Assembly (NCBI GenBank): GCA_043821285.1
Contig: JBDRCZ010000017.1
Span: 15,947 to 79,946 of the forward strand
Direction: 5' to 3'
DNA length: 64,000 nucleotides
Origin: Candidatus Omnitrophota bacterium
GTDB taxonomy: Bacteria > Omnitrophota > Gorgyraeia > B26-G9 > JBDRCZ01
Within the stretch, counting starts at the first letter, position 1. Each line of letters opens with the position of its first letter. Below, in pieces: positions 29,564 through 59,961 of this stretch. The translations under genes and the position numbers were made by a program. The notes under the pieces were generated by a model. It ran no database searches and had not been told where the DNA came from. It saw only the letters and a program-made list of their open reading frames with translations.

Positions 29564-29620
29564 GGATATATCGTGAAAAAGTAAGAAAAATCGTATTGTG
29601 TATTGAGTATTGTGGTTAAG

Positions 29621-29806
29621 AAATCTATCCACGAATGGTACAAAAAGCAGCGTTAATGACGAATGACGAAATCAGAACATTAAAATAAAAAACTCAAAAA
29701 AAGAAAATTAAATTTTAGCCACGAAATACACGAATCGCACGAAAAAAGAAAAGAGAATAAAAAGAAAAATATTTAACCACGAAGATCACGAAGTTTTTTT
29801 GTGAGA
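29621..29806 (-). repeat. Array of about 9 direct TTCGTG/TTCGTC hexamer repeats, including three at 9-bp spacing
   Basis: On the minus strand: CGTGATCTTCGTGG; TTCGTGCGATTCGTGTATTTCGTGGC; TTCGTCATTCGTCATT; CCATTCGTGG. They lie 60-250 bp upstream of the 29535-29563 promoter, between it and the terminator of giant gene A. Confidence 0.45.
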
Positions 29807-32820: not shown

Positions 32821-32930
32821 ATTACATATATGCTTTCATTCTCGTATTGAGTATCGCGTATTAATGTTTTAAATTCGAAATCCGAATATCTAAATGTTTA
32901 GAATTTGCCATTCGTCATTATAAGTGTTTT

Positions 32931-32958
32931 ATTTTATCTATCTAGTTGATCCTGTCTA
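32931..32958 (-). promoter_or_regulatory. Candidate sigma70 promoter for giant gene A
   Basis: Minus sense TAGACA-N16-TAAAAT. The -35 lies inside the conserved motif GATCCTGTCTA. About 100-nt leader. Confidence 0.35.
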
Positions 32959-33140
32959 ATTCGTTCTCGTATTGCGTTTTTTTATTGTCGTCTACTTGTT
33001 TTTATACTCAATACTCGATACACAATACACAATGCGTTGTTTAATCATTTCTCTCCGTGTTCTCTGCGGCTCTGTGTGATAAATTTTAGCTTTTATTTTC
33101 TGTCTTCTGAATTCTGATTTCTGTTTTCTGCTGTTAACTG

Positions 33141-36100
33141 TTAGATTGCTTGCTCTGCTATAAATATATTAGGTACTGTTATTTCTCCGGCACTTGGTAT
33201 ATCTTCAAGTAATGTGTCCGGTGCAAATACATTTTCATTAGCAGGATTGGCTCTTGTGGCTATATCTTTAGCGTTTATAACACGTTGTGAGCGTCTGTCC
33301 TTATGAGCACTAGTGTCATTCGTTTCCTTTTGTAATTTTGCAAGAAGAACCGGATTATCTTTTATTTCACGGTGATTTTTGACGTTGGGAAAAAAACCTG
33401 TTGTCAGTTTTCTTGCGGCGGTTAAATCATCAACAGTTTGAATAATCATTCCTAATTCACCATTTAAATCTTCGCTATGAACAACACCAGCTTCTAATCT
33501 TACCTGCATGCCTAATTCTGAAATCACTTCATTAACTTTGATTTCGATCGCTTTCAAAGTAGCGGCAATTTTTTCCGAAGTAATTATCCCATCATCTTCT
33601 CTATAAGCTCCTGCAAATTGATTATAAACATTGTTATTAATTGATAGAATTACATCATTTCCAACATTGTGGCCAAATACATCATTAATAACCTTAAATC
33701 CAAAATGCAATTGTGCAAATTGTGCATCTCCATTTAAGTCTGTTTCTCTGTAAAACTCTCTGTTGCCGCTTGCTCTTATGAAATCATTTATATTTATGGA
33801 TGTAGAACTAACTATATAATGTGCTGATAGTTTTATCAGTTGTACACGGTTATTTTCTCTTTTTATAACGAGGTAGAACTTATCAGGCCGTTCATGTACA
33901 ATACTGATTGAAACAGCAGATTTGCCGTCTAAAATGTTTTGAATGGTTTTGCCCAACTTATCTCTTTCTATTACCGGGTAAAACTTGTCTAAATCTTCTT
34001 TCGAAATACCCGCATCTATCATTTCCTGACGTATTCTTTCTCCTTCAACTCCTAATTGAAATTTTTTATCGTCAGCTATTTTAATCGGTGATTTTCTCTC
34101 TTCGCGCTCAGGATCTGGGCGTTCGGATAATCCTATTCCTACTAACTTGTTGGCATATTTAGTCCTGCGCTGGGTGTATTCCGCCTCATCTCTAGCAATT
34201 CTTAGTTGTTCCAATAGACTCATTTGGGAAATATTAGGTATATCACTTATTTTTACTGCTCCTACCGGGGCAAAGGGAACATAAACAGGAAAATAAATCT
34301 TACCATTAATATCAATGTCAAGACATTTAAGATTAGCGAGTATCTCGGATAGAACAGTGTTTTCATCCTCTTCTACATCTTTAGTGAACAGTATAAATGT
34401 TTCCTTAGAAGCCTTTTCTTCTTCTGGCGTTAAAAATACTGATTTTGTGACCGTAGTAATGTTTCTTTTTTTATTTTCTCTTAATTTTTCTATCAACGCA
34501 TCTCTGTTACTATCATTTATATTTTTTAGGATTGCAAAAACGTATTTTCCTTCAATCCGTTCTATGACCTTGCGTTGAATTTGTACGAGAAAGTGCTCAA
34601 TAACTTCTTTTGGCAACATAGGTGGTAACAAACCAACAACCTCATCACCACTAACATGATAAACTGTTCTACCTCTTTCTTCAATTTCTTTACGAGCTGC
34701 CTCAATTAATGTGTTAATTGCAAGTATATTCACATTTTCCCAGCCATATACATCATTTCTACCCCTTAGTTCGCTGATGTCAAAGAATATCACCCAAGCA
34801 TTGTCGTCGTGTCTACCTAAAAATACCACTGCTTCTTTTTCCCATTTTTGTGCATTTTCTGGATAGGCTTCATTAAGAAAGTTTCTTACGCGTGTTGTAT
34901 TATCAAATAAAGTGGTTAAATACATTATAAACTCTTGCAGTTCGTTATAGGGTTCGTCAGTATCTTTTCTACTTAAAAGAACATCTATCACCTTAGTAGC
35001 CGCGTCCCTAAATTGCTGATCATTAATATTTTGGTTAATAATTTTTCTCCACTTCTCACCTAAACGCTTTATTTCAGCCTTCAGAAACATTTCTATTGCT
35101 TCCTCATCTTCGCCTTGTTCTTTACACCTATCTACTTCTAATATTACTTTTTCTACATCTGCGCCCAACTCAAAAGCAAAAAATTCCCCATCTCGTTCCT
35201 GACTGGAATTTTCTCTTGGCAAAATGCTTGCCATACCTAAGCTAAATGCTGCGATTAAACCTGCGGTTCCTCCTCCCATCCCTGATTGAAGCATTGATGC
35301 TGCGGAAAATTCTGGTTGAGATGGGAAATAACCAAGTGCTCGCATTAATGTTCCAATAGATGCTGCTAAAAGCACGATGGATATTTTAGGTTTATTTCCA
35401 AACCATGCAACTAACCTCCTAATTAGCGTACCTAACCTGTTCTCATGGGAAGGACTTTTGTTTAATGCCCTCCAACCAGTTGGATGCATAAATGCTACAT
35501 TAGTTGCTTTGCGTCTACGATGAAGAAGTCCGCTTATATTTGCAGGAAATATTATTTTTCTGCTTATCCACTTTTTTACCTCATAAGCAATATATATTAA
35601 TGTTAAAATTATGCCCAAACCAGGTATTACCATACAATCGCTAATAAAATTATTCCACTGTTTAACACGAGCATAACCTTCTCTTACAGTAAAACTATCA
35701 ATAAAAAACTCTTCTCCCATCGGTGGCATGATACCAAACTTAGCAATAAAATCTGCCTGGTTTTTAAATGCTTCTGTTGTTTCTGGATTGATATCAAAAA
35801 AAGGAATAACTAATCGAGCAATGTTAAAAATCAACGTTACTGGGTTATGTTTTATAAGAAATTCCATTGGGTTTTTAGGCAAATTATCGACATGATGACT
35901 TAAACGCACTAATGTAACAGCGTATTCAAAAATTCCTCGCTTAGTAAAGAAATTTAATCCAATATTAGGATTACCCCATGTTCCATTCCATCTTGAACCA
36001 TAGACAATATCAAAATTGCTTTCACGGATAGGTGGATTATTTGTCATAAGAATTTGGTAAGTTTCGGGAGAAACTAATTTTATCAAAAATAGCGCTGGTC

Positions 36101-39100
36101 CAATATGTTCTGCTCCTTCAGTTCCATCTCTTCGCTCAATAAAATCGTCCAACATGCCCGCAGCTTTATATTCATTGTAAAGTTTAATTACGGCTGTATC
36201 GATTTCCTGAGCTCTTTTTCGTGCTGTTGATTCTATAAATGATCCCGTGTTTTCATCAATTTTTGATGCAAGTGGAGAGTTTTGAAATGTTTCAATTAGA
36301 TTATGGAATTCATTTAAAGCTATTTGTAATTCTCCATTATTTTCTTGTAATGATACAGGTTGTGGTAATTCATTAAGTTTTAAACTGTCAGCTGGTGTTG
36401 GCTGTACTAATCCACTTTTTCCAACTGGTTCTAAAGATACAATGTTTAATGGTGCAGCAATTCCGATTGGTGCTAATATGGTCTGTGATCCGATAGCGAG
36501 GATAGTGAGTAAAGGCAATACTACCTTACGTGCAAAAGAGAAGTTAACACTGTGTTTAAAACCCCAGCCAAAAATAGCTAATCCTATCAGTCCTATTGCC
36601 GCAATTACAGCACCTGGCAAACCAAAAAATAACCCTGCAAACCCAATTGCCATAATTAACCCATCGATTGAAAGTGCTGTGGTTCCATTAGGTAACCTAC
36701 GGCTGGAATTATTATCCGGCGCAGTAATCTCTACATTATCTCCATGATTAAACGTCTGTTCTAAGTCTTCTACGCTTCTGGGCAAGCCGTTAACTTTTAA
36801 CACCAACTCCCCAGACTGGAGCATTTTTTGTGTGGTTAGGATGGCTTTGCGATTACGATCATTATAATAAGAAATCTGTGAAGTAATAGTCTTAATAAAT
36901 AAATATGCCAGCAGATCATAGATATTTGTTGCGGGAATCTGTTCTGCTGATATCAGTTCTCTAATACCATCTTGTTGACTATTACTGGCTTCTTTAGTTA
37001 TTGTTAATTGGATTAATGCTTTTTGTTCTTCTTCTTGCAATTTTTGAGTTTGCTGAGTTATTTCATCCTCTAAAAGAGCTAATCCAGCCCTATGCTGCTC
37101 TAAGATATCTTTTTCAGGATCAAATTCCCCTTCAGCACAAATTATTAACCCATTTGGCATAATATAGTAGACTATATTGAGATAGCCATGTGTGCTTTTG
37201 CCGATCATCAGTGAGTTTTTATTATTTAGCCAACCTTCGTACCTTTCCTTATGAAGCATAATTTGTTGGCTATGTGTATAATATCTTAACGTTGCATTAA
37301 TAAAACCTTGCGCATCGGCTTCCTCTTCTTTACGATAAGTAAGTGTTGTTCCATGCCCAATGAAACCATTTTTATAATGTTCAGGTAAGTTCTTCCATTC
37401 TTTGTTCAAACCACTTTCAATCCTTTGATGCAGTGATTTGTTTCCAGGAGCCGGTATGACACGTTCTGGCTCTGATGCTAATATCTCAAAGCTCGTGAAG
37501 GCATAAAAAATATTTTCTCTATCTGTCGCAATACCCATGCGTGTTTGACCCAAATTATCAGTTACTACCTGCCAGGTTGTTAATCCTATTTCTCGAGTAT
37601 ATGCAATTAGCGCCAGTTCGTATATTTCTTCTGTTAATAGTCCATCATTTACCATCCGCACAAAAAGCTTAAGAAATTCGTTGCTGTGATATATAAACCC
37701 GACCAATATTACTAAAGAAATTTTTCTTAATCTTTCTGTTGCGTTCTCTTCCTTTTTGAGTTTACAATAGATTGCTTCTATTGCAGTAACACAATCACTT
37801 TTGTATTCTGAGCCTATTGGATCGTCTTCTAACAAGATATTCCCTAATATCTGAACCGCGTATTCTGTTCCAATATCACCTAAAAGGTTTTTAACAGCCC
37901 TTAGGCGTAAGTAAAGCGGGTTAGTTTTATCATTCAACGCATTTGTCACAAGTTTTTCTGCAGGTTCACCAATTCCTCTTATAATCTCCTCACCAAGCAA
38001 AAGTAAGTTGGTTAAGTTCATATTAATTATATATCTATTTGGTTGTTGAATTAATGTTCTCATTCGCTTAATACAAGATTCAATCACATGTGCTCCCAAT
38101 ATCTCTTTCCTGCCAATTTCAACTAAATAGTCCTTTAAAAGTTCTTTTCTTATGTTAGCAAGCTCATAAGCTGAATGAAAAAATAAAATTATTAAACTAT
38201 CAGTTATTTTATCAACCATTTGTTTAATAATATTGTTTTGGTTTTCTGCTCTGGGATTTATTTTTAATGCATTGGCAATTTCAGTTATAAACTGTCTATC
38301 TCTATCTGATAATTCATCCTGTTGAATTCTATTGTATAAGACGAATAAATATCTTATAAAATAATTGAGTACCTCAATAACAGTTCTAAGAAAATCTAGT
38401 TCAGTTTCGTTAAATACTTCTTTTTTTTCAAATTTTTCCTGTGTCATTTGCTCAAATATTTCTTTTATCAATATAACCACTCGTATTTCATTACGTTCTT
38501 TAAGTATGTTAATAAGTAAACGTCTTATCCTCAGGTCAGAAGATTGAAGCACGTATTCTCTTATGTGGGGAAATGCCCGCTCGACAATATTACCTAACAC
38601 CGAAGAGGCAATTGTAACACGTGTTCCGCGATATATTAATCCCTGTTCACTTAATTCTGTAACAGCAGATTGAAGATTATCTTCTGATTTTTTTGCAATC
38701 TCCGTCAAAATATCAATAATCACATCTTGTTTTTTTTCTCCATGATCAAGCAGGTGCCGGATAGCTTTTACGCCAAACCCTTTAACCAAAATATCTTTAA
38801 TATCAGATGTTATTTCACGATCTTCACTATGAGCTGATAAGGCATCTGTTAAAAGGTCCATTGCCGTTGCAATTGTATCTTCATCTCTATTAGCAAATTC
38901 ACCAAGTTCAGCCATATTATCAGTACGTGAAGCGCGATCTCTATACGTAGCTAACTTATTAATCACATCCTGTATGTAAGCTCTCGTTGTACTATTATAA
39001 CTATTTCTATTGCTAAAATGCTTTGTTGTATCTTCTCCCGGATTGCCCCAATCTTGTAAACTAGAAAAAGGTAACTTTAATCCACCTATTCCGGCAAATG

Positions 39101-39581
39101 TCAGTTTAGGGTTTATGCATTGCCAAAATAAATAAACTACCCCTGTTATCATTAACAATACATAAGGATTATTAAAATAACCATGAGGTATATTAGAAGA
39201 TAAGGAAATAATTATTTGCTTAAGTGGGTATAAGATTGTGCTTAGCGGTATTATATTGCTTATTACCAACACAGAAAATATTGCTAAAGCAGTTATACCG
39301 GCAATATAAGCTAATGTTCTGAATCTGTTTAAAAAGATTGGTGATTCTGTTGTAGGTTGTTTTGTTGTGATGGTAGCTGGGGCATGAGGTGTCATTTTTT
39401 CTCCTGAAATTATGAAAGCATGTTCCGTTACGGAATTAGCTATTTGCAATTCAGGGGCAAGGTGGGTGTGTAGACCTTTTAGATTGCCGCCGGCGGCCCA
39501 GGAAATGTCCAGGCATAAAAAGGCATTGATTAATATTATGGAAATTAGTCTAAAATAAATTTTACGTGTTAAATTATTCAT
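33141..39581 (-). CDS. Giant-family protein B (2146 aa): signal peptide, several TM clusters, HEAT/ARM-like repeats, two degenerate GGDEF-like nucleotide-cyclase palm domains, C-terminal IAEQAI
   Basis: N-terminus MNNLTRKIYFRLISIILINAFLCLDISWAAGGNLKGLHTHLAPEL. GGDEF-like 1: FFDISELRGRNDVYGWENVNILA...YHVSGDEVVGLLP. GGDEF-like 2: HFGFKVINDVFGHNVGNDVIL...AYREDDGIIT. TM clusters at about aa 85-165, 960-1010, 1290-1420. No terminator between B and A. Confidence 0.7.
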   Translation of the reverse strand: MNNLTRKIYFRLISIILINAFLCLDISWAAGGNLKGLHTHLAPELQIANSVTEHAFIISGEKMTPHAPATITTKQPTTESPIFLNRFRTLAYIAGITALAIFSVLVISNIIPLSTILYPLKQIIISLSSNIPHGYFNNPYVLLMITGVVYLFWQCINPKLTFAGIGGLKLPFSSLQDWGNPGEDTTKHFSNRNSYNSTTRAYIQDVINKLATYRDRASRTDNMAELGEFANRDEDTIATAMDLLTDALSAHSEDREITSDIKDILVKGFGVKAIRHLLDHGEKKQDVIIDILTEIAKKSEDNLQSAVTELSEQGLIYRGTRVTIASSVLGNIVERAFPHIREYVLQSSDLRIRRLLINILKERNEIRVVILIKEIFEQMTQEKFEKKEVFNETELDFLRTVIEVLNYFIRYLFVLYNRIQQDELSDRDRQFITEIANALKINPRAENQNNIIKQMVDKITDSLIILFFHSAYELANIRKELLKDYLVEIGRKEILGAHVIESCIKRMRTLIQQPNRYIINMNLTNLLLLGEEIIRGIGEPAEKLVTNALNDKTNPLYLRLRAVKNLLGDIGTEYAVQILGNILLEDDPIGSEYKSDCVTAIEAIYCKLKKEENATERLRKISLVILVGFIYHSNEFLKLFVRMVNDGLLTEEIYELALIAYTREIGLTTWQVVTDNLGQTRMGIATDRENIFYAFTSFEILASEPERVIPAPGNKSLHQRIESGLNKEWKNLPEHYKNGFIGHGTTLTYRKEEEADAQGFINATLRYYTHSQQIMLHKERYEGWLNNKNSLMIGKSTHGYLNIVYYIMPNGLIICAEGEFDPEKDILEQHRAGLALLEDEITQQTQKLQEEEQKALIQLTITKEASNSQQDGIRELISAEQIPATNIYDLLAYLFIKTITSQISYYNDRNRKAILTTQKMLQSGELVLKVNGLPRSVEDLEQTFNHGDNVEITAPDNNSSRRLPNGTTALSIDGLIMAIGFAGLFFGLPGAVIAAIGLIGLAIFGWGFKHSVNFSFARKVVLPLLTILAIGSQTILAPIGIAAPLNIVSLEPVGKSGLVQPTPADSLKLNELPQPVSLQENNGELQIALNEFHNLIETFQNSPLASKIDENTGSFIESTARKRAQEIDTAVIKLYNEYKAAGMLDDFIERRDGTEGAEHIGPALFLIKLVSPETYQILMTNNPPIRESNFDIVYGSRWNGTWGNPNIGLNFFTKRGIFEYAVTLVRLSHHVDNLPKNPMEFLIKHNPVTLIFNIARLVIPFFDINPETTEAFKNQADFIAKFGIMPPMGEEFFIDSFTVREGYARVKQWNNFISDCMVIPGLGIILTLIYIAYEVKKWISRKIIFPANISGLLHRRRKATNVAFMHPTGWRALNKSPSHENRLGTLIRRLVAWFGNKPKISIVLLAASIGTLMRALGYFPSQPEFSAASMLQSGMGGGTAGLIAAFSLGMASILPRENSSQERDGEFFAFELGADVEKVILEVDRCKEQGEDEEAIEMFLKAEIKRLGEKWRKIINQNINDQQFRDAATKVIDVLLSRKDTDEPYNELQEFIMYLTTLFDNTTRVRNFLNEAYPENAQKWEKEAVVFLGRHDDNAWVIFFDISELRGRNDVYGWENVNILAINTLIEAARKEIEERGRTVYHVSGDEVVGLLPPMLPKEVIEHFLVQIQRKVIERIEGKYVFAILKNINDSNRDALIEKLRENKKRNITTVTKSVFLTPEEEKASKETFILFTKDVEEDENTVLSEILANLKCLDIDINGKIYFPVYVPFAPVGAVKISDIPNISQMSLLEQLRIARDEAEYTQRRTKYANKLVGIGLSERPDPEREERKSPIKIADDKKFQLGVEGERIRQEMIDAGISKEDLDKFYPVIERDKLGKTIQNILDGKSAVSISIVHERPDKFYLVIKRENNRVQLIKLSAHYIVSSTSININDFIRASGNREFYRETDLNGDAQFAQLHFGFKVINDVFGHNVGNDVILSINNNVYNQFAGAYREDDGIITSEKIAATLKAIEIKVNEVISELGMQVRLEAGVVHSEDLNGELGMIIQTVDDLTAARKLTTGFFPNVKNHREIKDNPVLLAKLQKETNDTSAHKDRRSQRVINAKDIATRANPANENVFAPDTLLEDIPSAGEITVPNIFIAEQAI

Positions 39582-40047
39582 AAGTTAATAGCCTATCAGT
39601 TAATTCCAAATGTTCCGCCTATCAAACCGGCGGACAGGCAAATAATAAAATCCAAATGACAAATGAATCATTTAATATCTCAATCTAAAAATCAAAATGA
39701 TATATTAAAATTCAAATATTTTTCTCTTTGACAGGATTTACAGGATTAACATGATTTTTTATCCAGTTAATCCTGTCTATTTTCTTATTTTCTCTGTGAA
39801 CTTTGTGTTCTCTGTGGTTATAAATTTTTTTATTTTTTTTAATCGTAATACTCAATACATGCTACTCAATACGCATTACTTTTTATAGTGTGCTCTCTGT
39901 GGTTAAAATATTTTTTGTTTTTTTATCTACATAATCATCCGTATTCTACGCTCTCTTTTATATGCACTATTTTCATTACAATCATACATATTGTAACCGC
40001 TAATAATTACAATCTGTTAAATATATTTATAACAATTTTAATATATA
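39582..40047 (-). promoter_or_regulatory. Long conserved 5' leader of giant gene B (about 465 nt)
   Basis: Shares several blocks with the 59037-59553 leader of gene E: conserved stem-loop TCCGCC-GGTTTGATA-GGCGGA near the start codon, CTCTGTG(A/G)TGATAAATTTTT boxes (CACAGAG in RNA sense), ACTCAATAC heptamers, AATCCTGTCTAT box. Confidence 0.5.
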
Positions 40048-40054
40048 CAAGTAA

Positions 40055-40082
40055 AGTATACCATATTTTTCTGATTTTTCAA
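40055..40082 (-). promoter_or_regulatory. Near-consensus sigma70 promoter of giant gene B
   Basis: Minus sense TTGAAA-N16-TGgTATACT (extended -10). Same sequence context (GTATACCATAT...TTTCAAGG) as the gene E promoter. Confidence 0.5.
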
Positions 40083-40419
40083 GGATTTTGCTAAAAAAAT
40101 ATAGAAAATAACAGATTAAAAGATTCAGGTGATCACGGTTTTAAAACAGTATCAAGGCATTATTTATAACTTATTTATTTATAATATATTATAAAATAAT
40201 TATCGAATATGCCTACATGTTAATTATTCGTGAAATTCGTGTAATTTGTTGTTTAAAAATAAGCAGTTAAAGTTTTTCTTTGTGTGATAAATTTTATTTT
40301 TTACCGCAGAGAAAATCTAAAAGAAATCTCGTTCACAGATGTATGTAAGTTACATCCACTTTCTATTCTTAGTGCGTTACGTAAACGGTAAACTGCCTGC
40401 CTCCCGTTAGGGAGGTAAA

Positions 40420-40447
40420 CTAAAAAATTGCCATAGGCAATTTTTTA
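40420..40447 (-). terminator. Terminator of giant gene C overlapping its stop codon
   Basis: Minus sense GCAATTTAA-AAAATTGCC-TAT-GGCAATTTTTT: 10-bp A/T-flanked stem. The stop-codon region GGCAATTT can alternatively pair with AAATTGCC. Confidence 0.6.
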
Positions 40448-43400
40448 AATTGCCCGTTCAATTTCAAACAAATCTGCTATCTCTCTCTTCTCCAGTTTTG
40501 TATCTGATCCATTTATGCCTACCCTATAGCCAGTGTGTCTTTCTTGGGGAGCAACTATTAGAGAATAAAGAGCGTGTAGTAACAGCATATCAGAATCAGA
40601 AATATGAGGGTCTATATTTTTTGCTTCTAATATTGATTCATCATCGCTTATTATTTCTTGTATAATTGTTTTTACTATATCTCTATCTTCAGCTCTGCAT
40701 TTTTCATGAATTGCATTCAGACATTGTTCAAAAAATGGTCTGAGCATCATAAGCTGAACATTATCTTCTTGTGTATATGCATTGGCAACTGCTTTTGTAA
40801 CTGTTTCTAAAACAGTTTGCCGGTAATCTGGTCTTACCGTATAGATATTATCAAAAAAGATAAAAGTCCCGGCTGCGGCTTGTGGCATTATTGTCTTGTT
40901 TAGTATCTCATTAATAACATTTCGAGGAAAATATACTAAAATACTTAATAATTTATCTATTGTAGTATTACTTGGGGTTAAACCTTGCTGCTGGATCAAC
41001 TCTTGATATTTTCTTCCTATGATTCTATGCATAGATTCAAGACTTCTTCTATTTGCATTTATCATTAAATTATTTCCTTTAACTGCTGTAACTAAGTCCG
41101 TTAATTCGCTTCGTATCATTTCTCGTTCTTTCTCAAATACATCCGTATCTTCGTTCCTCTGAGATATAAATAACCCTAAAAATTCAAGTTCTAATGCTTT
41201 TTTAAAGGCATCTTCCGAAGTAAATGCGTTTAATCTAACAGTAATATTTTCTAACAACATTAGCTCAAAGCTGGTACCTTGACGAAAAATATGTTTTAGA
41301 AATTTTTCTGCATTAGTAAATTCGGGTGAAAAGATGATTTCTCCACTGACACCATCTACTGTTTTCTCCATCACTTCATTTATCAAATTACCTACTGAAT
41401 CTAAGTTGTGAAACTCGTTTAATCTATTTTCATCTTGTATAACAGCTCTTAAATAAACCTCCATTCTTAAAAGGTAATCAGCCAAAAAAACACCATCAAT
41501 TGCAAAACGTATATTTTCATTCGTATCTTGAGTTCTTGCAGTCAAGGCTTGATAAAGAAAATCATCTATATCGGTCAACATTCTATAAAAGATTTCCATT
41601 GCTGTTTCCTTATCCTGTTTTAGAGCAAGTTCGAGGACATTATTAACATTTGAAAAATCTCGTGAAATATACTCCTTAATTACATCACATAACGCATTGA
41701 ACAGTGGTTTTTTATCACGACGGTAAATAGCAAAACTTAGCCTAATAAATGCTGCTAATATCTCATGGGAATTAAATCCTGAATTTATTAAATAACTTTG
41801 CTCCTTTTCTATATAGATTGGTATAATTTTAGAAACGTCATATCCCGCAATAACTGTGTAAGCAACTGCAGCAAAAATAAGATTATGTGTTTCTGCATCA
41901 TGTTTAGGAATGTTTATTCGTTGTAAGATTTCTCCTAATACTTCTCCTGCCTCAGTAGTTCTCTCCTCTTTTCCTTCAATCTGCGCTTTTATTTTATTAG
42001 TAAAAAATTCAAAAACAAAATCAGGTTCTGCCTTAAGATACGCTTCTATTGTTTCCCAATCTGCTGCTAATAAATTACGCAGTTTTTGGATTTTATCTTG
42101 AACCACGATTAAGTTATTTCGTAGATTGCTTATTTTTTTCTGATTTTTTCTCGTTTGTTTTTGCTCTTTGTTTATGGTTTGCTGAATAGTTCTTTCATTG
42201 CTTTGGCGACGATTAAGTGCCTGCGTCCTTGTAATAACTCCTTCTAAGAGGATTGTTACTTCAGAGAGTTTTTCTCTACGCGCTTTTACTGCCGGGGGCA
42301 TATCTAAAAGTAGAGGTTCCCTTGTTGTCACTGGAGCCTGCCATGCTGGAAGTTCTTCAGATGCTACTTGCATAGCAGCAGCGCCTTGAAGGACCTGAGG
42401 ATATAATGAATGTTTTTGCATTGGGTCTTCAACTAACATAAGCTCACAACTTTGAGGCGGTTTGAGAGCATTAATTCTATTTTGGATAACTACTCCCAAT
42501 CCCCAAGCCCATTCTGCTTGACTTTTATATAAATCAACTAAGGCTTCAATATCCTCACTTTCGTTTATAATTGCGGTTATTCTCTCTACCAGAGGAGCCC
42601 GGCTGTTTCTGTTAGGATAGGTATTAAGCATTTGATATAATTCAGGTATATTACTTAAATCATTATAACCGAGTAATCTTTTTCTCAGTACCTCTGCTAT
42701 TACCCCCCTTATTTGCTTACATCCGTAGGTATATTTATTTATAGAATTATCTGTAAGTAAACGAAGCAGGTTTTCGATATCTAAGGAAAACACTTGCCTG
42801 ATAATACCGAAAATAATATATATTTCTACTTCAGAGTGAATTTTTTTACTAAGTAAATTAGCTAATGCAGCAAGTGCCTCGCCCCCCCATTTACTAACCA
42901 TCTCCTGAGCAATAGCTTGAGCTTGTGTTTTGTCATTATTTTCTGCTTGCTGACGTTTAAATCTATCGGAAATTGCGGTTAATCGTTCAATGCCATCTTC
43001 AATCGAAGAAACAGTTAGGTGTATTTCTGATATTTTTCCTTGAGAAGCAATACTATTACTTAATTGTGCGGCTGCTGCTTGCTTTGTTTTCTGGGGTAAC
43101 CTTGGATTTCGTGACCACTCTGAAAGCAAGCGATCATTTACTTCTGCTAATCTTTTTGCAGTGCTTAACGCCTTAATTCTATACCAAAGATAATTATTCC
43201 AGTATTCATCGTCCCATTCTTGGCTTAGATACACATCAACTAAGGCAACAATATCTTGATTATTTTTTATTATATGTTTCATCCTTCTTCTTGCCAGATC
43301 TTTAATGTCTTCGTTCGGACATAATGTTTCATTATTAATAACATAATATAATGCAGAAATACTTGTTACGTTTCGAGGAATGCTAACAGTTTTTATGATA

Positions 43401-46400: not shown

Positions 46401-47536
46401 CAATACTGTACTGGTTTGCGATACACTGCTTTTGCTGCTACTAATATATTTTTTTCTTTCTCTGTAAGTGCGGTGTCATCATTTGTCCATATCCTAATCA
46501 TTCCGTGTCTTGGTGCTGTTATATAAAATGAAATTTTTGACGCAAGAAACTCTTCCCATTCTTCTGGAGAAGGCACAGTTGATAAATCAGCACGTAAACG
46601 TATAAAACGGTTATAGTTTTTATTTTCGTTATTAATTATGTCTGCCGGAAGCAGCCGCCGGCCAACATGAATTTCTATATTAGAGTTTTCTGGTATTGGT
46701 TGGGTATAACGGCTTCGATCAGGGGTTGAAACATTCCAGTAGTTTTGTGTTGATATACCAAATCTCAAAGATTCGTTATCTATTTTTATGCTCTCGGGAG
46801 CAAAAAACATCATCATAATTGCATGCGCAGGTAAACGTATTGCATCAATCCAGTAGTGAATTCCTTTACGATAACTATACTCAAGGATAATTTTAATACC
46901 ACGTTCAAACAGAACTTTTAATCCGGGTAAAAAGGCAATATTATTAAATACGCTGTTGGTATTTAATCTAAAGACTTCCATATCCCTGGGGACAGTAAGC
47001 ACTATTCGCGGAGACGCACCTTTAATATCTATTTTTCCATAAGTAGTAATTTCACTTTGCAAATCACGCGCCAACCCAAGCAAACTTAGAAAGTCAATTT
47101 CTTTTAGAACCGGGGGTATTCTTTCAACCGTCTCATCATCTGGACAAGGTATTTCTGGAATTTCCCTAATATTTAATTGATTGTTTTTTTTAGAAATTAC
47201 ATAAGAACGTTGTTTACCAGCTGCGCCTGTTGTTACAAACAATACTATCGAACCATCATTCGCAAATCTTTTCTCGCATGCATCAAACTCAAACTTATCT
47301 TTAATATAACTTACGCCAACATGTCCTTCTGCCCAAGTATATGCATCACTTATTTTTTTGTAAAGCATAATATTTTCTGCAAATAGAGGGTCATTTACTT
47401 CCAAAGGCGGGGCAAGATGGGTATGTAGACCTTTTAGATTGCCGCCGGCGGCCCATGAGATGTCTAAGCATAGAAAGGCATTGATTAATATTATGGAAAT
47501 TAGTCTAAAACAAATTGTACGTGTTAAATTATTCAT
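40445..47536 (-). CDS. Giant-family protein C (2363 aa): signal peptide, TM cluster, poly-acidic/poly-basic linker, helical-repeat C-terminal module paralogous to F, C-terminal FEIERAI
   Basis: N-terminus MNNLTRTICFRLISIILINAFLCLDISWAAGGNLKGLHTHLAPPL. DDSDQYDDDEEEDK ... RKKRKREREKE. C-terminal 700 aa align clearly with gene F, e.g. LIFAAVAYTVIAGYDVSKIIPIYIEKEQSYLIN versus LFAVIVYTFIAGGDVSKIILIYIEKEISYLIN. Confidence 0.7.
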   Translation of the reverse strand: MNNLTRTICFRLISIILINAFLCLDISWAAGGNLKGLHTHLAPPLEVNDPLFAENIMLYKKISDAYTWAEGHVGVSYIKDKFEFDACEKRFANDGSIVLFVTTGAAGKQRSYVISKKNNQLNIREIPEIPCPDDETVERIPPVLKEIDFLSLLGLARDLQSEITTYGKIDIKGASPRIVLTVPRDMEVFRLNTNSVFNNIAFLPGLKVLFERGIKIILEYSYRKGIHYWIDAIRLPAHAIMMMFFAPESIKIDNESLRFGISTQNYWNVSTPDRSRYTQPIPENSNIEIHVGRRLLPADIINNENKNYNRFIRLRADLSTVPSPEEWEEFLASKISFYITAPRHGMIRIWTNDDTALTEKEKNILVAAKAVYRKPVQYWDTNKSTQDWDSAENYIKMMKEKEANLNNFDETQRLAIIKALAEQFGVYSVSAVLQIIENLLNEHQNITPQSLGQLVEVIKWWGGEFVLILANYLTTLFNKNKHTEIERIVLRVDSLGLAFYGALLASIKDNELLAVIQNIHNKRILDIRQYNTKIQRLRERLEFFPTDGLKKIKTEGKGDGYKLRIAWWHQDRMIDNTKYAIAGNTILLRNEANSKELIIDILRKEVTFRENDIIWIGNVEYKIVKEDDKIFLSDKENKHDLRKDRNGNIIIDLRALIKTNRAVREFYQESNAGKSVTLNSHPLINGLFLLLIAPFILEVISNITGIPVSVNLGHLPIHAILGLSLIMTFPLYIQPQIQFIPNVWELVKKAVTGAKSAMLIIIDYIEFTIINSLARHEGLLYPVVHFVAARPDALAFFIWKGLAWGFSLLCLLGSTGVRSTRNSALEIDLSFLVKTYLLLDEDTYHEALKDAIDNIIESAHENGQIIEQLIGVINDLTLSEEEIEQLMQEGSGELSEENIRIALMLIIEELINAIDDSDQYDDDEEEDKVVLMKRKARKQYRADSPPIARKKRKREREKENNPQAYTVPLQSGDLRQPEKEGTDTAEVALPKDTVPPSGNNNPLTLNSLEKLAAAFDLSLSPPDRFVRTTAPSNAAQVVHFPEPPSQSDTRALRAAWRNANQRADTNRDAPPTREVAAPSDNQVTFAELLADFDPIKTLTLEELLRRLNHGDNSSQLIEAIKQRLAEYQGIASIEPLQDLLNDREYHEGTRALLRMRIRELVNECDNLKTAVELYLERSWGSSIRNILSEKILRLTGIQKHIAGTIYLFFSNAANTELNDILSQYMCLENEVVHVLGLLIGIQDRTVRKRIIEWLRINKPELDTTIASQIEKLEKELADYYQTPEEIQAFIASAPQEVKNIITEMYNTKDKDEFLEIIKQFAEQIDTNLLNEEAIEITMSALGNCLNSMSVTEIFYLYTAMNQQETKGAEVTRGMIKSIIIIKTVSIPRNVTSISALYYVINNETLCPNEDIKDLARRRMKHIIKNNQDIVALVDVYLSQEWDDEYWNNYLWYRIKALSTAKRLAEVNDRLLSEWSRNPRLPQKTKQAAAAQLSNSIASQGKISEIHLTVSSIEDGIERLTAISDRFKRQQAENNDKTQAQAIAQEMVSKWGGEALAALANLLSKKIHSEVEIYIIFGIIRQVFSLDIENLLRLLTDNSINKYTYGCKQIRGVIAEVLRKRLLGYNDLSNIPELYQMLNTYPNRNSRAPLVERITAIINESEDIEALVDLYKSQAEWAWGLGVVIQNRINALKPPQSCELMLVEDPMQKHSLYPQVLQGAAAMQVASEELPAWQAPVTTREPLLLDMPPAVKARREKLSEVTILLEGVITRTQALNRRQSNERTIQQTINKEQKQTRKNQKKISNLRNNLIVVQDKIQKLRNLLAADWETIEAYLKAEPDFVFEFFTNKIKAQIEGKEERTTEAGEVLGEILQRINIPKHDAETHNLIFAAVAYTVIAGYDVSKIIPIYIEKEQSYLINSGFNSHEILAAFIRLSFAIYRRDKKPLFNALCDVIKEYISRDFSNVNNVLELALKQDKETAMEIFYRMLTDIDDFLYQALTARTQDTNENIRFAIDGVFLADYLLRMEVYLRAVIQDENRLNEFHNLDSVGNLINEVMEKTVDGVSGEIIFSPEFTNAEKFLKHIFRQGTSFELMLLENITVRLNAFTSEDAFKKALELEFLGLFISQRNEDTDVFEKEREMIRSELTDLVTAVKGNNLMINANRRSLESMHRIIGRKYQELIQQQGLTPSNTTIDKLLSILVYFPRNVINEILNKTIMPQAAAGTFIFFDNIYTVRPDYRQTVLETVTKAVANAYTQEDNVQLMMLRPFFEQCLNAIHEKCRAEDRDIVKTIIQEIISDDESILEAKNIDPHISDSDMLLLHALYSLIVAPQERHTGYRVGINGSDTKLEKREIADLFEIERAI

Positions 47537-47853
47537 ATGTTAATACCCTGTTAGTTAATTCCAAATGTTCTAATTCAAGATTTAAAAATTCCAAGATTCC
47601 AGATTCTAAAATTATAAAATTCCCCGCTACAAGGTCGAAGATCCGCCATCGTATTAGTGAAGAACGCTGGCGAACAGGCAAATTCTCTAACCTTCGGCAA
47701 GTAAAACGTTTTGAATCGTTAAATCTTAAAATATTCAAATTTTGGAATTGTTTGTTTTATTCTTCTGTCTTCTATTCTCTACCTTCTGTTTTCTGCTTTC
47801 AATCAGCTGTATCAGTAAACGGTAAACTGCCTGCCTTCCATTAGGGAGGTAAA

Positions 47854-47881
47854 CTAAAAAATTGCCGCAGCAATTTTTTAG
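47854..47881 (-). terminator. Terminator of giant gene D overlapping its stop codon
   Basis: AAAAAATTGC-CGCA-GCAATTTTTT hairpin; minus sense ...GCAATCTAA AAAATTGCTGCGGCAATTTTTTAG. Confidence 0.6.
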
Positions 47882-50800
47882 ATTGCTTGTTCTACTGCCA
47901 ACATTTCATTCCACTCTAACTCTGTAAGTGCAGGGGGTTGTTTAGGCATTGTTGTCAATTGTCCTGGGTTATTATCATGAGGATCCAGTCTTTGCTGCTC
48001 TACAATCTTTATTGCTGCTTCAATAATCGCTGCAGTGTCCATCTTATGTGCACGGTATAATATCTCGTGACTTCTTGCGGATTGTCCCCAACCTTGGATT
48101 CCTAACGAAGTTACAGTTGAACCAGTTGTAAGCAGAGATGAAGTTACTACCTTACTTACTGCTCCGCTTAATATTTTTGGAGAAGCGTCTTGAACAGTAA
48201 TTATTGGCACTCCCCGTTCAAGAAGAGGTGGTAAAGCTTCATCGATTAAATCCAATCTGGTCAAATTTATTACTTTTGCGGTAATATCTTGACTTTCCAA
48301 TTGTTCGCTCGCGGCAATTGCAAATTCCACCATTGCTCCGGCAGCAATAATAATAATATCGCTATTTTGTCCGTTTTCTCTTGGATCTTTAATTACATAA
48401 GCACCTTGTTCTGGACTGGGATTTTCTCCTCTATTTAAAACTGGAACATTTTGACGGGTAAGCTGAAGATAAGAAGGTCCTTTACCATCTAATGCCCTGT
48501 GCATAGCAAAATCTACTGCTTCTTCAGCCTCACGGGCATCTGCAGGTATAAAACCAGTCATTTTTTGCAAAAAAGAAATATAGCGAATAACGCCAGCAAC
48601 GATTACTGACTGATGAGTAGAACCGTCTGGCCCAACGCCTAAGCCGGCATGACTTAACGCAACAATTACCGGTAGTTTTGCCCGGGCAATCACAATTATT
48701 TGACTAATCATTCGGTTAGCAAAACAATCAAAGGTTGCGATAACTGGTATCTTACCATATAATGCTAATCCAGCAGCAATTCCTGCCATTGCTTGTTCTC
48801 TTACTCCGGATGGAACGTATCTTCCATTGGTGTTATGACGAGAAAAAATGCCAAAGTCCCTAGCAAACCAATTCAGTCTTGTAGAACTGGCAATGTCCGC
48901 GCAGAAAGCAATAATCTTTTCGACGCGTTTTCCCCAGTCAAGCATCCTGTTACCAAAACCATCACGTGTAGCAAAATTCCTATTTGCTTGGTATCTAATT
49001 TCTGCCGGTGTTTGTAGCATTGTCATTTGAACCGGCTCTGGCTCTTGTGTTTGTTTAATGTTGCTATAAATAAGCAGATTGAATTCCCCAATCTTATAAG
49101 GAACCATTCCATTCAATGCTTCCATAATTGTTGTGGCCATGATGTGTTCATCAAAACCCCGGGTAATAATTAAAACAGGTTTTCCTGTATTATCCTTGTT
49201 TAGCTGTTCAAAGGTTTGACCTAAGATTTCAGCCTGTTCTTGATTATTATTAGCATTGAGCTCAATCACTCTCCAACCATAAGCTTGCCAAATATTAACT
49301 AATTCCGTGTTTGTCTCTGAAGCTTGAAGGACTAAGCAGAGATTATCTATGCCATTGTGTGCGGCGAATCTAGCTGTTTCTGCAAACTGACCTTCTCTTT
49401 CTTCTTTTTCCGTGGCTAAAGCAATAACTCTGCCAGATGCTGTATCCATTTTAGCTCCAAAAGCTATACCTGCGGCCAGAGAAAGACGCATACCCGCAGG
49501 GAATATTTCTTGAGGACTAAAATCTATTTTCATAAGCCCGTCCGTGGGTTTTTCTTTTCCATCAACTAATTCTTTTGCTACTTCTATTATATTTTCAATA
49601 TCCTTGTCACTCATGGACCAAACAACGGAACCTGCGGTTTTAGAAGATGAAGTTACAGTCCTGCTTACCGCATCACCTAAACATACTGGCAATCCATCAT
49701 AAATTGTAAGAATACGGCTTCCTGGCTCAATATACTCTAAGAGCTCACTTCCTGCACCTAATGAGTCTAATTGCGTAACATTTATGATCTTAGTCATCGT
49801 ACCTTGTGATTCTAACTCATTACTGACTTTTATGGTTTGATGAAGACTTTTACCTGAAGAAATAAGAATAACCCTCTTTTTTGCCGTGTCCCACCCTTCA
49901 GATTGACTTATAACATAGGCACCTTGCTCTGGCTGGGGATTTTCTCCTCTATCTATAACCGGAAGATCTGCAGAACTTAAACGAATATAAGAAGCAGTGT
50001 ACTCATCTGGGATATTAAGTGATGTAGGGGCTTTATTTGTTATTTTAGCCAATAATAATGCATTTTTTATTGCCATATCAGTCAACTCATTAGTTTCATT
50101 AGGATCCCCTGGTTCTAACGCAATTACATTATGCATCAGGTCCATAACTCCTGGGGTAAAACTTAACTCTTCAGATTCAGCCGCTAAAATAAACGGTACC
50201 CTTGCCTGAGCATTTATCCTTAATTGGTCTAACATTTTCATCGCATCATTTTCCGGCAGAAAGACAATCGGCAGCATACCCGAATAACCAAACCCAGCAG
50301 CAAAACTGGCTAAGTGCTGTTCTCTATCCTCAACTAAGAAACATCGCTCGATGAGTTTATTTCTTATATCTTCATCAGTAATCTGTGCAATAAATTCATC
50401 AATAAATCTTTGTTTAGAATCGGAATTATTAAAAATAAATACTATCCGTTCATCTTTTTCTGCCCACTGGAGTAGTCTATTTTTAAATGCAACAGATGGA
50501 GAGACTTCCTCATCCTGTGCATAGTTGGTTCTATCTGGTATTGTTGTCGTGTCTGTTTTTTGTAGAGTACTCTCTTTTGATAAATTGTTTTCTTCTTGTT
50601 CTGTCATTTGGTTATCTGAAATAAATCTATCTACATCTGTTGAAAATCCATAAAAATTCATTTGTTGACTAATATTTTCAATTGTGTTTTCTATTTGGGG
50701 GATAGCTTCAGATAGTTCTTTATCATTTAATGCTCTACCGTGAAACGCGGTTGGATCATCTTCCATAAAATCTACGCCTTTACCTTTTTTTGTCTTGGCA

Positions 50801-53553: not shown

Positions 53554-53756
53554 GATTTGTAGATATGTTTATCCATTCCAGATTTTAAAATTCCCCGCCA
53601 TAATGCGTTGACAGGCAGATTCAAAATTTAAATATTTTCTTTGAAACAAGTGTCACATGATTAATCTGATTTTTTATCCTTCTTTATCCTATTAATCCTG
53701 TCTATTTTTTCTGCTTTTTTGTCTTCCAAATTCTGACTTCTGTTTTCTATCACAGT

Positions 53757-55227: not shown

Positions 55228-55285
55228 CCTGTTCTATCATTTAAAACATATAGTAGACAGCAAACTGTACACTGTAAACGGTAAA

Positions 55286-55313
55286 CTAAAAATTGCCGAT
55301 GGCAATTTTTTTA
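55286..55313 (-). terminator. Terminator of giant gene E overlapping its stop codon
   Basis: AAAAATTGCC-GAT-GGCAATTTTTTT; minus sense ...GCAATCTAA AAAAATTGCCATCGGCAATTTTTAG. Confidence 0.6.
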
Positions 55314-59036: not shown

Positions 59037-59553
59037 AATAAATATCTCCAGTTATTTAATTTTAAATGTCCCGCCTATCAAACCGGCGACAGGCAAATGA
59101 ATCATTAAATAATTCAATCTTTAAAATTTATTTATGTAATTTGTGTGATTTGTTGTTAATAAAATAAGTACTTGAAATCTTTCTTTGTGTGCTCCGTGTC
59201 TCTGTGTGACAAATCTAATATTTTTGTTTCGCTTGTCCGCCGTGCTCTGTTTGGCGGGTCATTCTGGTTTCGTTATTCGTTATTAAATTATCCTGTCTAT
59301 CATCCACAATGATTGGCGGATCTTCAATTTTTTATATTTTCTCTGTGAACTTTGCGAGCTCTGTGGTGATAAATTTTTTATTTTTTTTTACCGCGATACT
59401 CAATACTCATTGCTTTTTATAGTGTGCGCTCTGTGATGATAATTTTTGTTTTGTTTTTTTAGCCACAATGCTCAATACACAATACCCGATACTTAATCAT
59501 ATTACTTTTCATAATGCCTTGTTATAAATAAATTTATAACATCTTTTAAATAG
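59037..59553 (-). promoter_or_regulatory. Long conserved 5' leader of giant gene E (about 515 nt)
   Basis: RNA sense contains at least 6 CACAGAG motifs, TATTGAG/TATTGTG heptamers, an AATCCTGTCTAT box, and the stem-loop GTCGCC-GGTTTGATA-GGCGGGAC 50 nt before the ATG. Collinear blocks shared with the gene B leader. Confidence 0.5.
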
Positions 59554-59560
59554 TTTTATA

Positions 59561-59589
59561 AGTATACCATATAATTACGCAATTTTCAA
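59561..59589 (-). promoter_or_regulatory. Near-consensus sigma70 promoter of giant gene E
   Basis: Minus sense TTGAAA-N17-TGgTATACT, read from + strand AGTATACCATATAATTACGCAATTTTCAA. Confidence 0.55.
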
Positions 59590-59933
59590 GGGTTTGGGGA
59601 AATTTTTTTTGATTTTGTGATTTCTATGCTTATTGTTTTAACTATTTGGTATTAAAAAAGATATGGCATAGAAAATTAACAACAGCATTATTTAGGCAAG
59701 AATTGATTATATTTTTATTAAAGAAATAAATTGTAAGAGAAAATAATTATTACGATTAGATTTTATTGATTCTAAAATTTTAAATAAATTTTAACTTTAT
59801 TTTTCACCACAGAAAACACTGAGCCCACAAAGAAAAACTTGATACAAATCATACAAATATTTACATGCATAGCCTTCTTCCGTATAATCTGATTCTGCCT
59901 GCCTCCGGTAGGACGGTAAACAGTAAACGGTTA

Positions 59934-59961
59934 ACAAAAAGTTGCCATAGGCAACTTTTTA
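59934..59961 (-). terminator. Terminator of giant gene F overlapping its stop codon (covarying stem)
   Basis: AAAAAGTTGCC-ATAG-GCAACTTTTT. Relative to the C, D and E terminators, the A:T pair is replaced by G:C on both arms, a compensatory change. Confidence 0.6.

Follow-up and report, generated by a model that had tools for sequence, protein, structure and literature searches.

A probable family-specific promoter and a candidate regulatory leader built from repeats upstream of giant genes in an Omnitrophota genome

The spacer upstream of gene B, one of six giant genes in a 64-kb stretch of DNA from a Candidatus Omnitrophota bacterium (contig JBDRCZ010000017.1; the whole stretch is referred to as the window), was analysed together with the corresponding spacer upstream of gene E. 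The two are best explained, with a probability of roughly 0.6, by a promoter belonging to one gene family followed by a regulatory leader composed of this genome's repeats. The parts of this reading differ in strength: judged by its sequence, a sigma-70-type extended -10 promoter of a family-specific class very probably lies ahead of B, with a twin copy ahead of E, and a regulatory role for the blocks of the leader is put forward tentatively, at somewhat less than even odds. Transcription would most likely start near 40048 and yield an mRNA for B that probably also covers A, the two genes being taken as one transcription unit because no terminator hairpin lies between them. Genes A-F are large, lie head-to-tail on the minus strand and extend from 29.8 kb to the window end (Table 1); the G+C content of the window is 36%. 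Gene B (33141-39581, minus strand) and gene C are 100% identical to ABH952_01580 and ABH952_01585, respectively, the ABH952_ proteins (MFH1776048-MFH1778349) belonging to the NCBI metagenome-assembled genome Candidatus Omnitrophota bacterium.

The original prediction had read TTGAAA-N16-TGgTATACT upstream of B as the promoter of a module repeated before E. The promoter and its 16-bp spacing were confirmed in B; the spacer in E is 17 bp long. Against the consensus TTGACA/TATAAT, both elements (TTGAAA-16-TATACT in B and TTGAAA-17-TATACT in E) match at 10/12 positions with an additional TG, and the two spacers are identical over the -35 block CCTTGAAAA (9/9) and the -10 block (13/13). Sites of at least 10/12 with TG numbered four in the 35 kb scanned, and all four are intergenic and face a gene, namely a haem-NO-binding-domain gene (28969-29508), an insertion sequence (IS) transposase gene, B and E. 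Within the window, the promoter core was seen only in giant-gene spacers.

For comparison, six loci were taken from other assemblies (L121, Logan ERR15087788; L122, JGI Ga0366832_1000890; L123, NCBI GCA_043805415.1; L124, NCBI GCA_018817585.1; L125, Logan SRR33089659; L126, Logan SRR25012955), giving seven genomes with the present one. A -35 element TTGCAA or TTGAAA, a 17-bp spacing and an extended -10 element TATGGTAYACTTTA precede genes of the family in at least six other genomes, examples being TTTGCATTATCCCAAAACTCATGGTATACTTTATCGC in L123 and TATTGAAAAAAATAAAAATCTATGGTACACTTAATC in L124. The general form of the family promoter is TTG(C/A)AA-N17-TATGGTA(T/C)ACTTTA, with the consensus TATGGTAtACTTtAt around the -10 element. 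The pattern TTG[ACT]A[ATC]-N12-16-T[GA]GTA[TC]ACT was found 12 times in the 190 kb of family loci, against a single occurrence in 754 kb of unrelated contigs, and every instance of the family promoter is intergenic and aimed at a gene whose product carries the N-terminal signal (N-signal) of the family, its C-terminal ..xAI tail, or both. The distance from the -35 element to TGG is 14 in 12 of the 13 instances aligned from the seven genomes and 13 in B, over a spacer of variable sequence; hexamers whose spacing is constant while the sequence between them varies classically mark a promoter, and the element is interpreted as one for this reason. The extended -10 element TGGTATACT is present in B, in E and in 10 of 11 instances from the relatives, L121 having TAG. 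Non-family neighbour genes are preceded by CTTGACA-N17-TGTTATAAA in the relatives and by GGGCTTGAC.. in the window. The distance from the -10 element to the next start codon in the relatives is mostly 58-230 nt.

Downstream of the -10 element lies an AT-rich palindrome, which reads TGTTATAAAT..ATTTAACA in the window and CTTTAWAAAG at the same position in L121, L122, L123 and L125. The B/E match at this palindrome is not significant alone (27.6 bits). Lying about 20 nt past the -10 element, it could be a protein-binding site, and is a candidate operator or 5' stem-loop.

Extended -10 (TGn) promoters of the sigma-70 type are familiar from E. coli and B. subtilis. The present element shares with them a -35 hexamer TTGAAA or TTGCAA, a spacer of 16-17 bp, a TG placed one base ahead of a TATAAT-like hexamer, A/T-rich sequence upstream and an orientation towards a gene, and by every sequence-level criterion it resembles an ordinary extended -10 promoter. 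It differs from them in the conserved C of TATACT, the G of TGG and the TTTAT that follows the hexamer, and in accompanying one gene family only. The novelty lies in this conservation of non-consensus positions combined with the restriction to one gene family, which together suggest either a dedicated factor or a promoter inherited along with the family. That the new element is a promoter signature accompanying a giant signal-bearing protein family across Omnitrophota genomes is well supported by the sequences compared.

The B spacer (39582-40444, 863 nt) and the E spacer (59037-59958, 922 nt) were compared on the same strand. Shared blocks of 27-73 nt were identified with 85-91% identity and scores of 35-83 bits, exceeding every match in 200 shuffles (best match 23.8 bits median, 33.4 bits maximum). 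These comprise 73 nt at 88% (B 39858-39786 / E 59406-59335), 54 nt at 85% (B 39925-39874 / E 59461-59408), 44 nt at 91% (B 39643-39600 / E 59098-59056), each copy of which begins 62 nt before ATG, and 27 nt at 89% (B 39686-39660 / E 59120-59094); the terminator block is 91% identical over 23 nt. In gene orientation, the order is terminator hairpin, GTTTACN heptamers, -35 block, -10 block ATATGGTATACTT, AT-rich palindrome, A-run with CACAGAG box 1, GTATTGA heptamers, A-tract with box 2, ATAGACAGGAT, the block of the AAATGATTCATTT palindrome, and the 44-nt block with its CCGCC-N9-GGCGG hairpin. At least seven blocks occur in the same order in B and E, and the stretches between blocks are unalignable.

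All of the elements named in the original prediction were found in the B spacer at the places given for them, including boxes of the CTCTGTG..ATAAATTTTT type (39790-39830 and 39893-39915) and heptamer repeats of the ATACTCAATAC type (39843-39872). The box consensus quoted for B proved to be that of E, the boxes of B reading CTCTGTGGTTATAAAT and CTCTGTGGTTAAAATA. Similarly, the proposal that B reproduces the E module in the same order holds for the collinear blocks but not for one 64-nt block (81% identity), which lies upstream of the promoter in B (40286-40224) and within the leader in E (59191-59128). Within the window, AGACAGGAT was seen only in the spacers of A, B, D and E, the AAATGATTCATTT palindrome only in giant-gene spacers, and GTTTACN doublets only after gene ends.

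Table 1. Positions of the promoter, leader, spacer and gene features in the window and in related loci
Feature	Position	Strand	Remarks
Promoter: CCTTGAAAA (-35 TTGAAA 40082-40077), 16-bp spacer, ATATGGTATACTT (TGG 40063-40061, -10 TATACT 40060-40055)	40052..40085	minus	Consensus score 10/12 with TG
AT-rich palindrome TGTTATAAATATATTTAACA	40015..40034	minus	Starts about 21 nt past -10; 16/17 positions as in E 59541-59525, at the same distance from -10
Copy of the module before gene E	59037..59958	minus	-35 59589-59584, -10 59566-59561, 17-bp spacer, leader about 518 nt
Predicted 5' leader of gene B, about 467 nt	39582..40048	minus	Start predicted from -10
Block 1: A-run, then TTTTAACCACAGAGAGCACACTATAAAAAG	39874..39925	minus	54 nt, 85% against E 59461-59408
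Block 2: GTATTGA heptamers, A-tract, then TTTATAACCACAGAGAACACAAAGTTCACAGAG	39786..39858	minus	73 nt, 88% against E; three CAC-word units with 9-nt period
ATAGACAGGAT box	39770..39780	minus	Within the AATCCTGTCTATTTTC region 39769-39784
Hairpin ACAGGATTAAC..GTTAATCCTGT	39730..39777	minus	20-nt arms, 85% complementary, 8 nt apart; not conserved in E
Block AGATTGAGATATTAAATGATTCATTTG with palindrome AAATGA-T-TCATTT	39660..39686	minus	27 nt, 89% against E 59120-59094
Start-proximal block: GCCTGTC, hairpin CCGCC-GGTTTGATA-GGCGG (39615-39633), then AACATTTGGAATTAA	39600..39643	minus	44 nt, 91% against E
Gene B codons 1-56, signal peptide and ..HLAP.L.. family motif	39414..39581	minus	From the N-signal comparison
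Terminator-like hairpin AAAATTGCCTATGGCAATTTTTT	40422..40444	minus	Directly 3' of the gene C stop codon, 5' edge of the B spacer; fold z = -5.0 against shuffles
GTTTACN heptamers, CCTCCC/GGGAGG hairpin and GGCAGGCAG	40381..40420	minus	89% over 65 nt against the copy after gene D
Box-plus-tail element (..AAAATTTATCACACAAAG.., then CACGAAT repeats)	40224..40312	minus	Upstream of promoter; 81% over 64 nt against E 59191-59128
Short spacer before A: CAGAANN, one CACAGAG box, GTATTGN, AGACAGGAT	32821..33140	minus	Without family promoter; no hairpin after B, fold z = +1.0
Short spacer before C: terminator, GTTTACN and CAGAANN, GCCTGT with GC hairpins	47537..47877	minus	Without boxes or family promoter
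Short spacer before D, proximal part	53554..53751	minus	Remainder 55244-55310, past the IS
Gene A			995 aa
Gene B	33141..39581	minus	2146 aa
Gene C			2363 aa
Gene D			1891 aa; transketolase domains
Gene E			1241 aa; S-adenosylmethionine (SAM)-methyltransferase domain
Gene F			>1340 aa; BlaI-like winged-helix domain at the C terminus; continues past the window edge
Tandem CAC-word boxes	1405-1545, 3830-3905, 4118-4200, 5110-5205, 16424-16520, 29720-29800		
PilZ genes	L122 3112-3474, 33148-33510; L123 6817-7176; L125 5207-5566; window 16739-17125		

The original prediction had treated the regions before B and E as two independent copies flanked by unrelated coding sequences, a view that had to be abandoned. 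The two are paralogous junctions that share the terminator, the spacer and the signal-peptide codons, and the genes upstream of them, C and F, are paralogues (590 aa shared at 36% identity); furthermore, about 55 N-terminal codons are common to A-E, and (I/V)E(Q/R)AI is found at the C terminus of all six genes. On the sequence evidence, the B/E similarity descends from one old junction duplication: a junction duplication because the flanking coding ends are homologous and the upstream genes are paralogues, and an old one because synonymous sites are saturated, with a synonymous divergence (dS) of 1.5 for the C/F core (38% protein identity) and of 2.3 for the N-terminal codons of B and E. Recent duplication of a segment holding a gene pair and its spacer would likewise fit the paralogy of C, upstream of B, with F, upstream of E, and the 55 codons common to B and E; these dS values and the low C/F protein identity indicate an old event and make it a very improbable explanation, in line with what the original prediction had argued on this point.

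Had it evolved neutrally, DNA duplicated so long ago would no longer align, yet leader blocks totalling about 200 nt (about 40% of the leader) have kept 85-91% identity. Because this identity is found beside saturated synonymous sites, the surviving blocks are most likely constrained. Boxes at matching positions are the most alike (B1-E1 0.88 and B2-E2 0.90, against 0.76-0.89 for other pairs).

Transcription from the predicted starts near 40048 (B) and 59554 (E) would give leaders of about 467 and 518 nt. From the promoter on, A predominates on the sense strand (A 42-43%, T 26-32%), and upstream of the promoter A = T, which fits transcription of the leader region. The B leader would then be an A-rich mosaic of dispersed repeats, consisting of an A-tract with three CAC-word units, GTATTGN heptamers and a GC-rich hairpin, whose block is fixed from 62 to 19 nt before the start codon. 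The start-proximal GC hairpin may serve as a 5' mRNA element for stability or translation initiation and the AAATGATTCATTT palindrome as a protein-binding site; the boxes and heptamers may be binding arrays, or may merely be tolerated repeats.

That the long leader is instead a structured cis-regulatory RNA, an attenuator or riboswitch-like element gating transcription or translation of the giant genes, appears improbable. Whole-leader folds are indeed stabler than those of shuffles (z = -3.0 for B and -2.7 for E), and leader-based control seems to exist in the group, as in L122 (8940-9440 and 28480-29230) the family promoter is followed by 4-6 tandem modules of about 105 nt with hairpins and terminators, ahead of giant genes. 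However, no Rfam model matched the window at its gathering score, no credible match was obtained in the B and E spacers at expectation values up to 1, and none in L121-L123. No terminator-like site was found on the sense strand of either leader, hairpins other than the GC hairpin are not conserved between B and E, the GC hairpin itself also occurs inverted elsewhere, and two sequences give no usable covariation. The L122 modules have the form ..ATGTGAGCG..variable hairpin..TTGAGAG..GGTTAGAGTG..hairpin..AACCTTTTTT, each module ending in a terminator, and small open reading frames (ORFs) of 61-87 aa (MIKIKNDELIGAYITI..) are interspersed among them. Their hairpins differ in sequence with pairing kept and have no Rfam match, and the modules are a candidate new leader RNA.

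Other functions considered for the B and E leaders were set aside. Leader peptides were rejected as the small leader ORFs are not conserved in frame or start, and a Rho-loading site was rejected as G exceeds C on the sense strand. CsrA-type GGA sites (e.g. ACAGGAT) were not established, most CAC-words being without GGA; likeness of TTATCACCACA to a DnaA box was not established either, the match being partial and the boxes dispersed. On the antisense strand, the ORFs 39751-39888 (+, 45 aa) and 59309-59422 (+, 37 aa) share ..IFSVNF..SVVINF.FFF..LNTH.FL and the same end point. They are probably a by-product of the conserved T-rich antisense strand; alternatively, they could encode a small hydrophobic peptide.

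Most blocks of the leader are not specific to giant genes and belong to dispersed repeat classes: GTATTGN arrays, tandem CAC-word boxes and the CCGCC/GGCGG hairpin with its loop are also found, in either orientation, elsewhere in the intergenic DNA of the window. The tandem CAC-word boxes have the form TTTA(G/A)CCAC-xxx, with 2-3 units at a period of 8-11 nt and often as inverted pairs, and 15 of their 17 matches are non-coding in a window of which only 14% is non-coding. The individual elements (Table 1) are long imperfect hairpins whose arms consist of 2-3 tandem CCAC+word units, the words (CACAGAT, CACGGAT/CACTGAT, CACGAA) being uniform inside one element and different between elements; the copies at 1530-1560 and 16480-16510 have a common tail AAATTCACG.ATTATTCAG.ATAATCT. 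CCGCC-N6-14-GGCGG occurs four times against 0.07 expected, with a near-copy in E, in the 64 kb of the genome visible.

GTATTGN arrays are found at 7333-7362, inverted at 7481-7521 just before dnaE, and at 29593-29614. The first two, inverted arrays of GTATTGC (four copies) and CAATACT (five copies), flank 120 nt between guaA and dnaE, the latter array stopping 8 nt before the dnaE start codon, and a similar inverted heptamer pair is present in the A spacer (33004-33033 and 32844-32862). By Tandem Repeats Finder and by motif scanning, the GTATTGN, GTTTACN and CAGAANN arrays were confined to spacers, apart from a CAGAANN doublet in gene F at 62247. The units CAATACT and GTTTACG also occur in relatives, with units recurring in L122 and L123. 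In a metagenome scan, (GTATTGN)x3 was recovered from more than 120 contigs with GC contents of 20% to 67%, none of which had the other motifs, and the array alone is therefore no lineage marker.

Cyanobacterial STRR sequences are intergenic heptanucleotide direct repeats. The present arrays are similar to these and to the TAACTGA heptanucleotide direct repeats of Beggiatoaceae, Cyanobacteria and Bacteroidetes (PMC4679880) in consisting of 2-5 tandem 7-nt units, in being intergenic and often near start codons, in showing 7-nt indels and in being without a known function. They differ in their units (GTATTGN, GTTTACN and CAGAANN), in their occurrence in Omnitrophota, and in running in either direction and sometimes forming inverted pairs (7333-7362 / 7481-7521). 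A single unrepeated TAACTGA at 39602-39608, 23 nt before the B start codon and followed by two loosely related heptamers, is probably a coincidence.

REP and REPIN elements, which are associated with REP-associated tyrosine transposases (RAYTs; NCBIfam NF047646), have a GTAG head, and REPs flank the RAYT gene. The CCGCC/GGCGG hairpin is alike in being a short GC-rich intergenic hairpin found in either orientation, and the window contains a Y1 (HUH) transposase-like gene (27148-27954, minus) that is closest to the RAYTs (75.7 bits, below the cutoff of 80). In contrast to REPs, no GTAG-type head was found at the hairpin copies, of which about five were seen, all in 5' leaders and not between convergent genes, and the flanks of the RAYT-like gene contain none of the present repeats or hairpins. 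In L125, a perfect REP-like hairpin AACCCAATTCTGACC..GGTCAGAATTGGGTT lies ahead of a similar Y1 transposase gene (9283-9951) and is found again 3.6 kb away, at about 5600.

Several observations weigh against a family promoter combined with a regulatory leader. Promoter-like consensus matches are overall no commoner than in shuffles (85 vs 77 and 65 vs 56), the transcription start, leader length and operon structure are all predictions, and genes C and D lack the family promoter yet stand behind terminator-like hairpins, which a simple operon picture leaves unexplained. In the six other genomes, the leaders of family genes contain none of the leader blocks of B and E, so cross-genome conservation backs the promoter only and not the leader. 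Local folds around the start-proximal hairpin are not stabler than shuffles (z = -0.2 to -1.8), and the CCGCC/GGCGG hairpin recurs with the same loop in the opposite orientation at 16671-16691, 50-70 nt before the PilZ gene at 16739, which argues against a loop-specific RNA function. Gene conversion has also been active in the array, the 5' ends of B and C being 89% identical over 175 nt with a dS of 0.39 (39441-39615 vs 47396-47570). The regions after C and D form a further patch of recent homogenisation (89% over 65 nt, 40381-40445 vs 47815-47879). Conversion could thus homogenise short patches and selection is not the sole way to keep blocks alike, which leaves the blocks as kept by constraint or homogenisation. 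The claim that the blocks rather than the whole region are under selection is accordingly qualified: their identity amid saturated dS speaks for it, while conversion and the membership of most blocks in genome-wide repeats speak against it.

These observations bear on an alternative in which the leader blocks are non-regulatory, being dispersed repeats (REP-like GC hairpins, STRR-like heptamers, CAC-word hairpins) that were spread or homogenised, perhaps via the RAYT-like transposase, with only the promoter functional; B and E would be alike since both spacers inherited one repeat set, with conversion keeping patches similar. The occurrence of the same classes in unrelated intergenic regions in both orientations, the predominance of non-coding CAC-word matches, the differing position of the 64-nt block, the absence of the blocks from relatives' leaders, the RAYT-like gene, the recurring hairpin at the L125 transposase gene and the recent conversion of the B and C 5' ends all favour this alternative. 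However, it accounts poorly for the collinearity of at least seven blocks, for the exact same distance of the start-proximal block to ATG, for the greatest similarity between copies at matching positions, and for the abrupt drop in identity (91% to 64%) at about -19, on entering the diverged coding region; several short conversion tracts are less economical than constraint, and the RAYT-like gene of the window is flanked by none of these repeats. We consider it possible, if rather unlikely.

The five spacers before A-E contain subsets of the same elements in the same order and differ by insertions and deletions. The common order is terminator hairpin, GTTTACN, CAGAANN heptamers, boxes, AGACAGGAT, GC hairpin and signal-peptide codons; the spacers of B and E are long and have the promoter, and those of A (320 nt), C (341 nt) and D (265 nt) are short and do not. 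Partial versions of the module before A, C and D had been foreseen, and the absence of the promoter noted for C applies equally to A and D. The D spacer, described earlier as truncated by an IS, is in fact interrupted: an IS701-family element (53752-55235) is inserted in it, bearing terminal inverted repeats of 22 nt, CAG(T/G)ACTTTGTTAAAAATCAGG, and flanked by the 8-bp target duplication TTCTATCA, and without this element a 265-nt short spacer like those of A and C remains. The transposase reading frame of the element apparently ends early, at 54986.

Genes C, D, E and F are each followed by a stable A-tract/T-tract hairpin (z = -2.0 to -5.0) and B by none (z = +1.0); the copy at 40422..40444, after C, is one of the four family copies and is 91% identical to that after F. 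The stop codon and last codons of C, D, E and F (..CAG GCA AT. TAA) belong to two conserved, alternative hairpins (GGCAAT..ATTGCC..GGCAAT) set in A and T tracts (40422-40462, 47855-47895, 55288-55328 and 59936-59976), so the conserved QAI tail and the terminator overlap in the DNA. Gene B, with no such hairpin in the spacer to A, still ends in EQAI.

The presence of a promoter on some members only recalls the Mycoplasma vlp and vsp systems, surface-protein multigene families with a shared 5' expression cassette. Unrelated coding bodies and a common upstream region with signal-peptide codons are further points of likeness; the present genes differ in having no homopolymer tract in the promoter spacer and in encoding multi-enzyme giants and not lipoprotein antigens, and promoter capture by inversion is impossible because all genes of the array share one orientation. 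A phase-variable switch was also considered, in which the promoter would lie on an invertible segment between inverted copies of the CACAGAG box, with arms at 59337-59374 / 59799-59836 in E (38 nt, 74%) and 39808-39825 / 40296-40313 in B (18 nt, 83%). This was not supported and is highly unlikely, as the flanking inverted repeats are not above chance: in dinucleotide shuffles, the best long-range inverted match in B is at chance level (25.7 bits against a 95th percentile of 27.6) and that in E is borderline (27.6 bits against a 95th percentile of 25.7 and a highest value of 29.5). Moreover, both promoters face their genes, and among the scanned ORFs of at least 100 aa in the window no serine or tyrosine invertase was found, only the IS701 and Y1-like transposases.

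The central regions of A-F are mutually unrelated, C/F excepted. The genes of the array have only three features in common: an N-terminal signal of about 55 residues (M..K..I.FKL..IILINAFLCLDISWAA.NLK.L.THLAPPL in A-E), a C-terminal ..(E/R)(Q)AI tail and their junction DNA. Among 1.84 billion proteins, 83 representative ones matched a profile of this signal, always at residues 1 to about 56; at least 26 of these come from this genome, five being encoded in the window and at least 21 on other contigs, and the others come from other assemblies. Peptide-pattern scans of genome and metagenome contigs for the N-terminal signal recovered no relatives, and the 660 C-terminal residues of gene C, queried in a word-indexed protein search, gave no match. 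The family genes of L121-L126 also terminate in ..xAI. Over genes A-F of the window (29833-63999) and L121-L126, the family is defined by its two ends alone, the N-signal of about 55 aa (..LINAFLCLDISWAAGGNLK.L.THLAPPL..) and the C-terminal ..xAI-COOH with its variants EQAI, GQAI, ESAI, ETAI and NNAI; between these ends the bodies, of 65 to 6278 aa, are unrelated and include transketolase, methyltransferases, phosphoglycerate kinase, site-2 protease and helix-turn-helix (HTH) regulators. The combination looks like an apparently undescribed two-ended sorting signal. Small PilZ-domain genes lie directly 3' of giant family genes in three relatives, with heptamer arrays ahead of them (Table 1), and the leader of the window's PilZ gene, behind which an HD-GYP gene lies, contains the CCGCC/GGCGG hairpin twice. 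The PilZ proteins next to giant genes in relatives and the BlaI-like winged-helix domain of gene F are candidate regulators.

Omnitrophota have not been cultivated, and a role in predation or host dependence is attributed to their giant multi-domain proteins. Giant multi-enzyme, signal-peptide-bearing proteins of this phylum have been described (bioRxiv 10.64898/2026.06.07.730766, with 176 complete Omnitrophota genomes, and 10.1101/2023.11.21.568195), and those encoded here resemble them in phylum, size, signal peptide, transmembrane helices and embedded enzyme domains (transketolase, methyltransferase). In these two papers no description of the N-signal with the ..xAI tail or of the promoter motif was found, and the words 'promoter' and 'intergenic' are absent from their main text.

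As a more speculative and doubtful extension, the TTGMAA-N17-TATGGTAYACTTTA promoter could define a lineage-wide Omnitrophota regulon of all proteins with the N-signal and ..xAI tail, read by a dedicated sigma factor or activator, with the long leaders gating expression further. If so, the regulon would comprise at least 26 proteins in this genome and proteins of up to 6278 aa in relatives, and its leaders (repeat arrays here, tandem terminator modules in L122) would serve as arrays bound by an RNA- or DNA-binding protein. The repeat-built leaders indicate that short tandem units structure the intergenic DNA of this Omnitrophota lineage, like that of cyanobacteria and large sulfur bacteria, and extend an unexplained phenomenon to another phylum. 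For the family itself, the promoter signature offers a sequence-only route to listing the members of a probable regulon and a bait for finding the factor that reads it.

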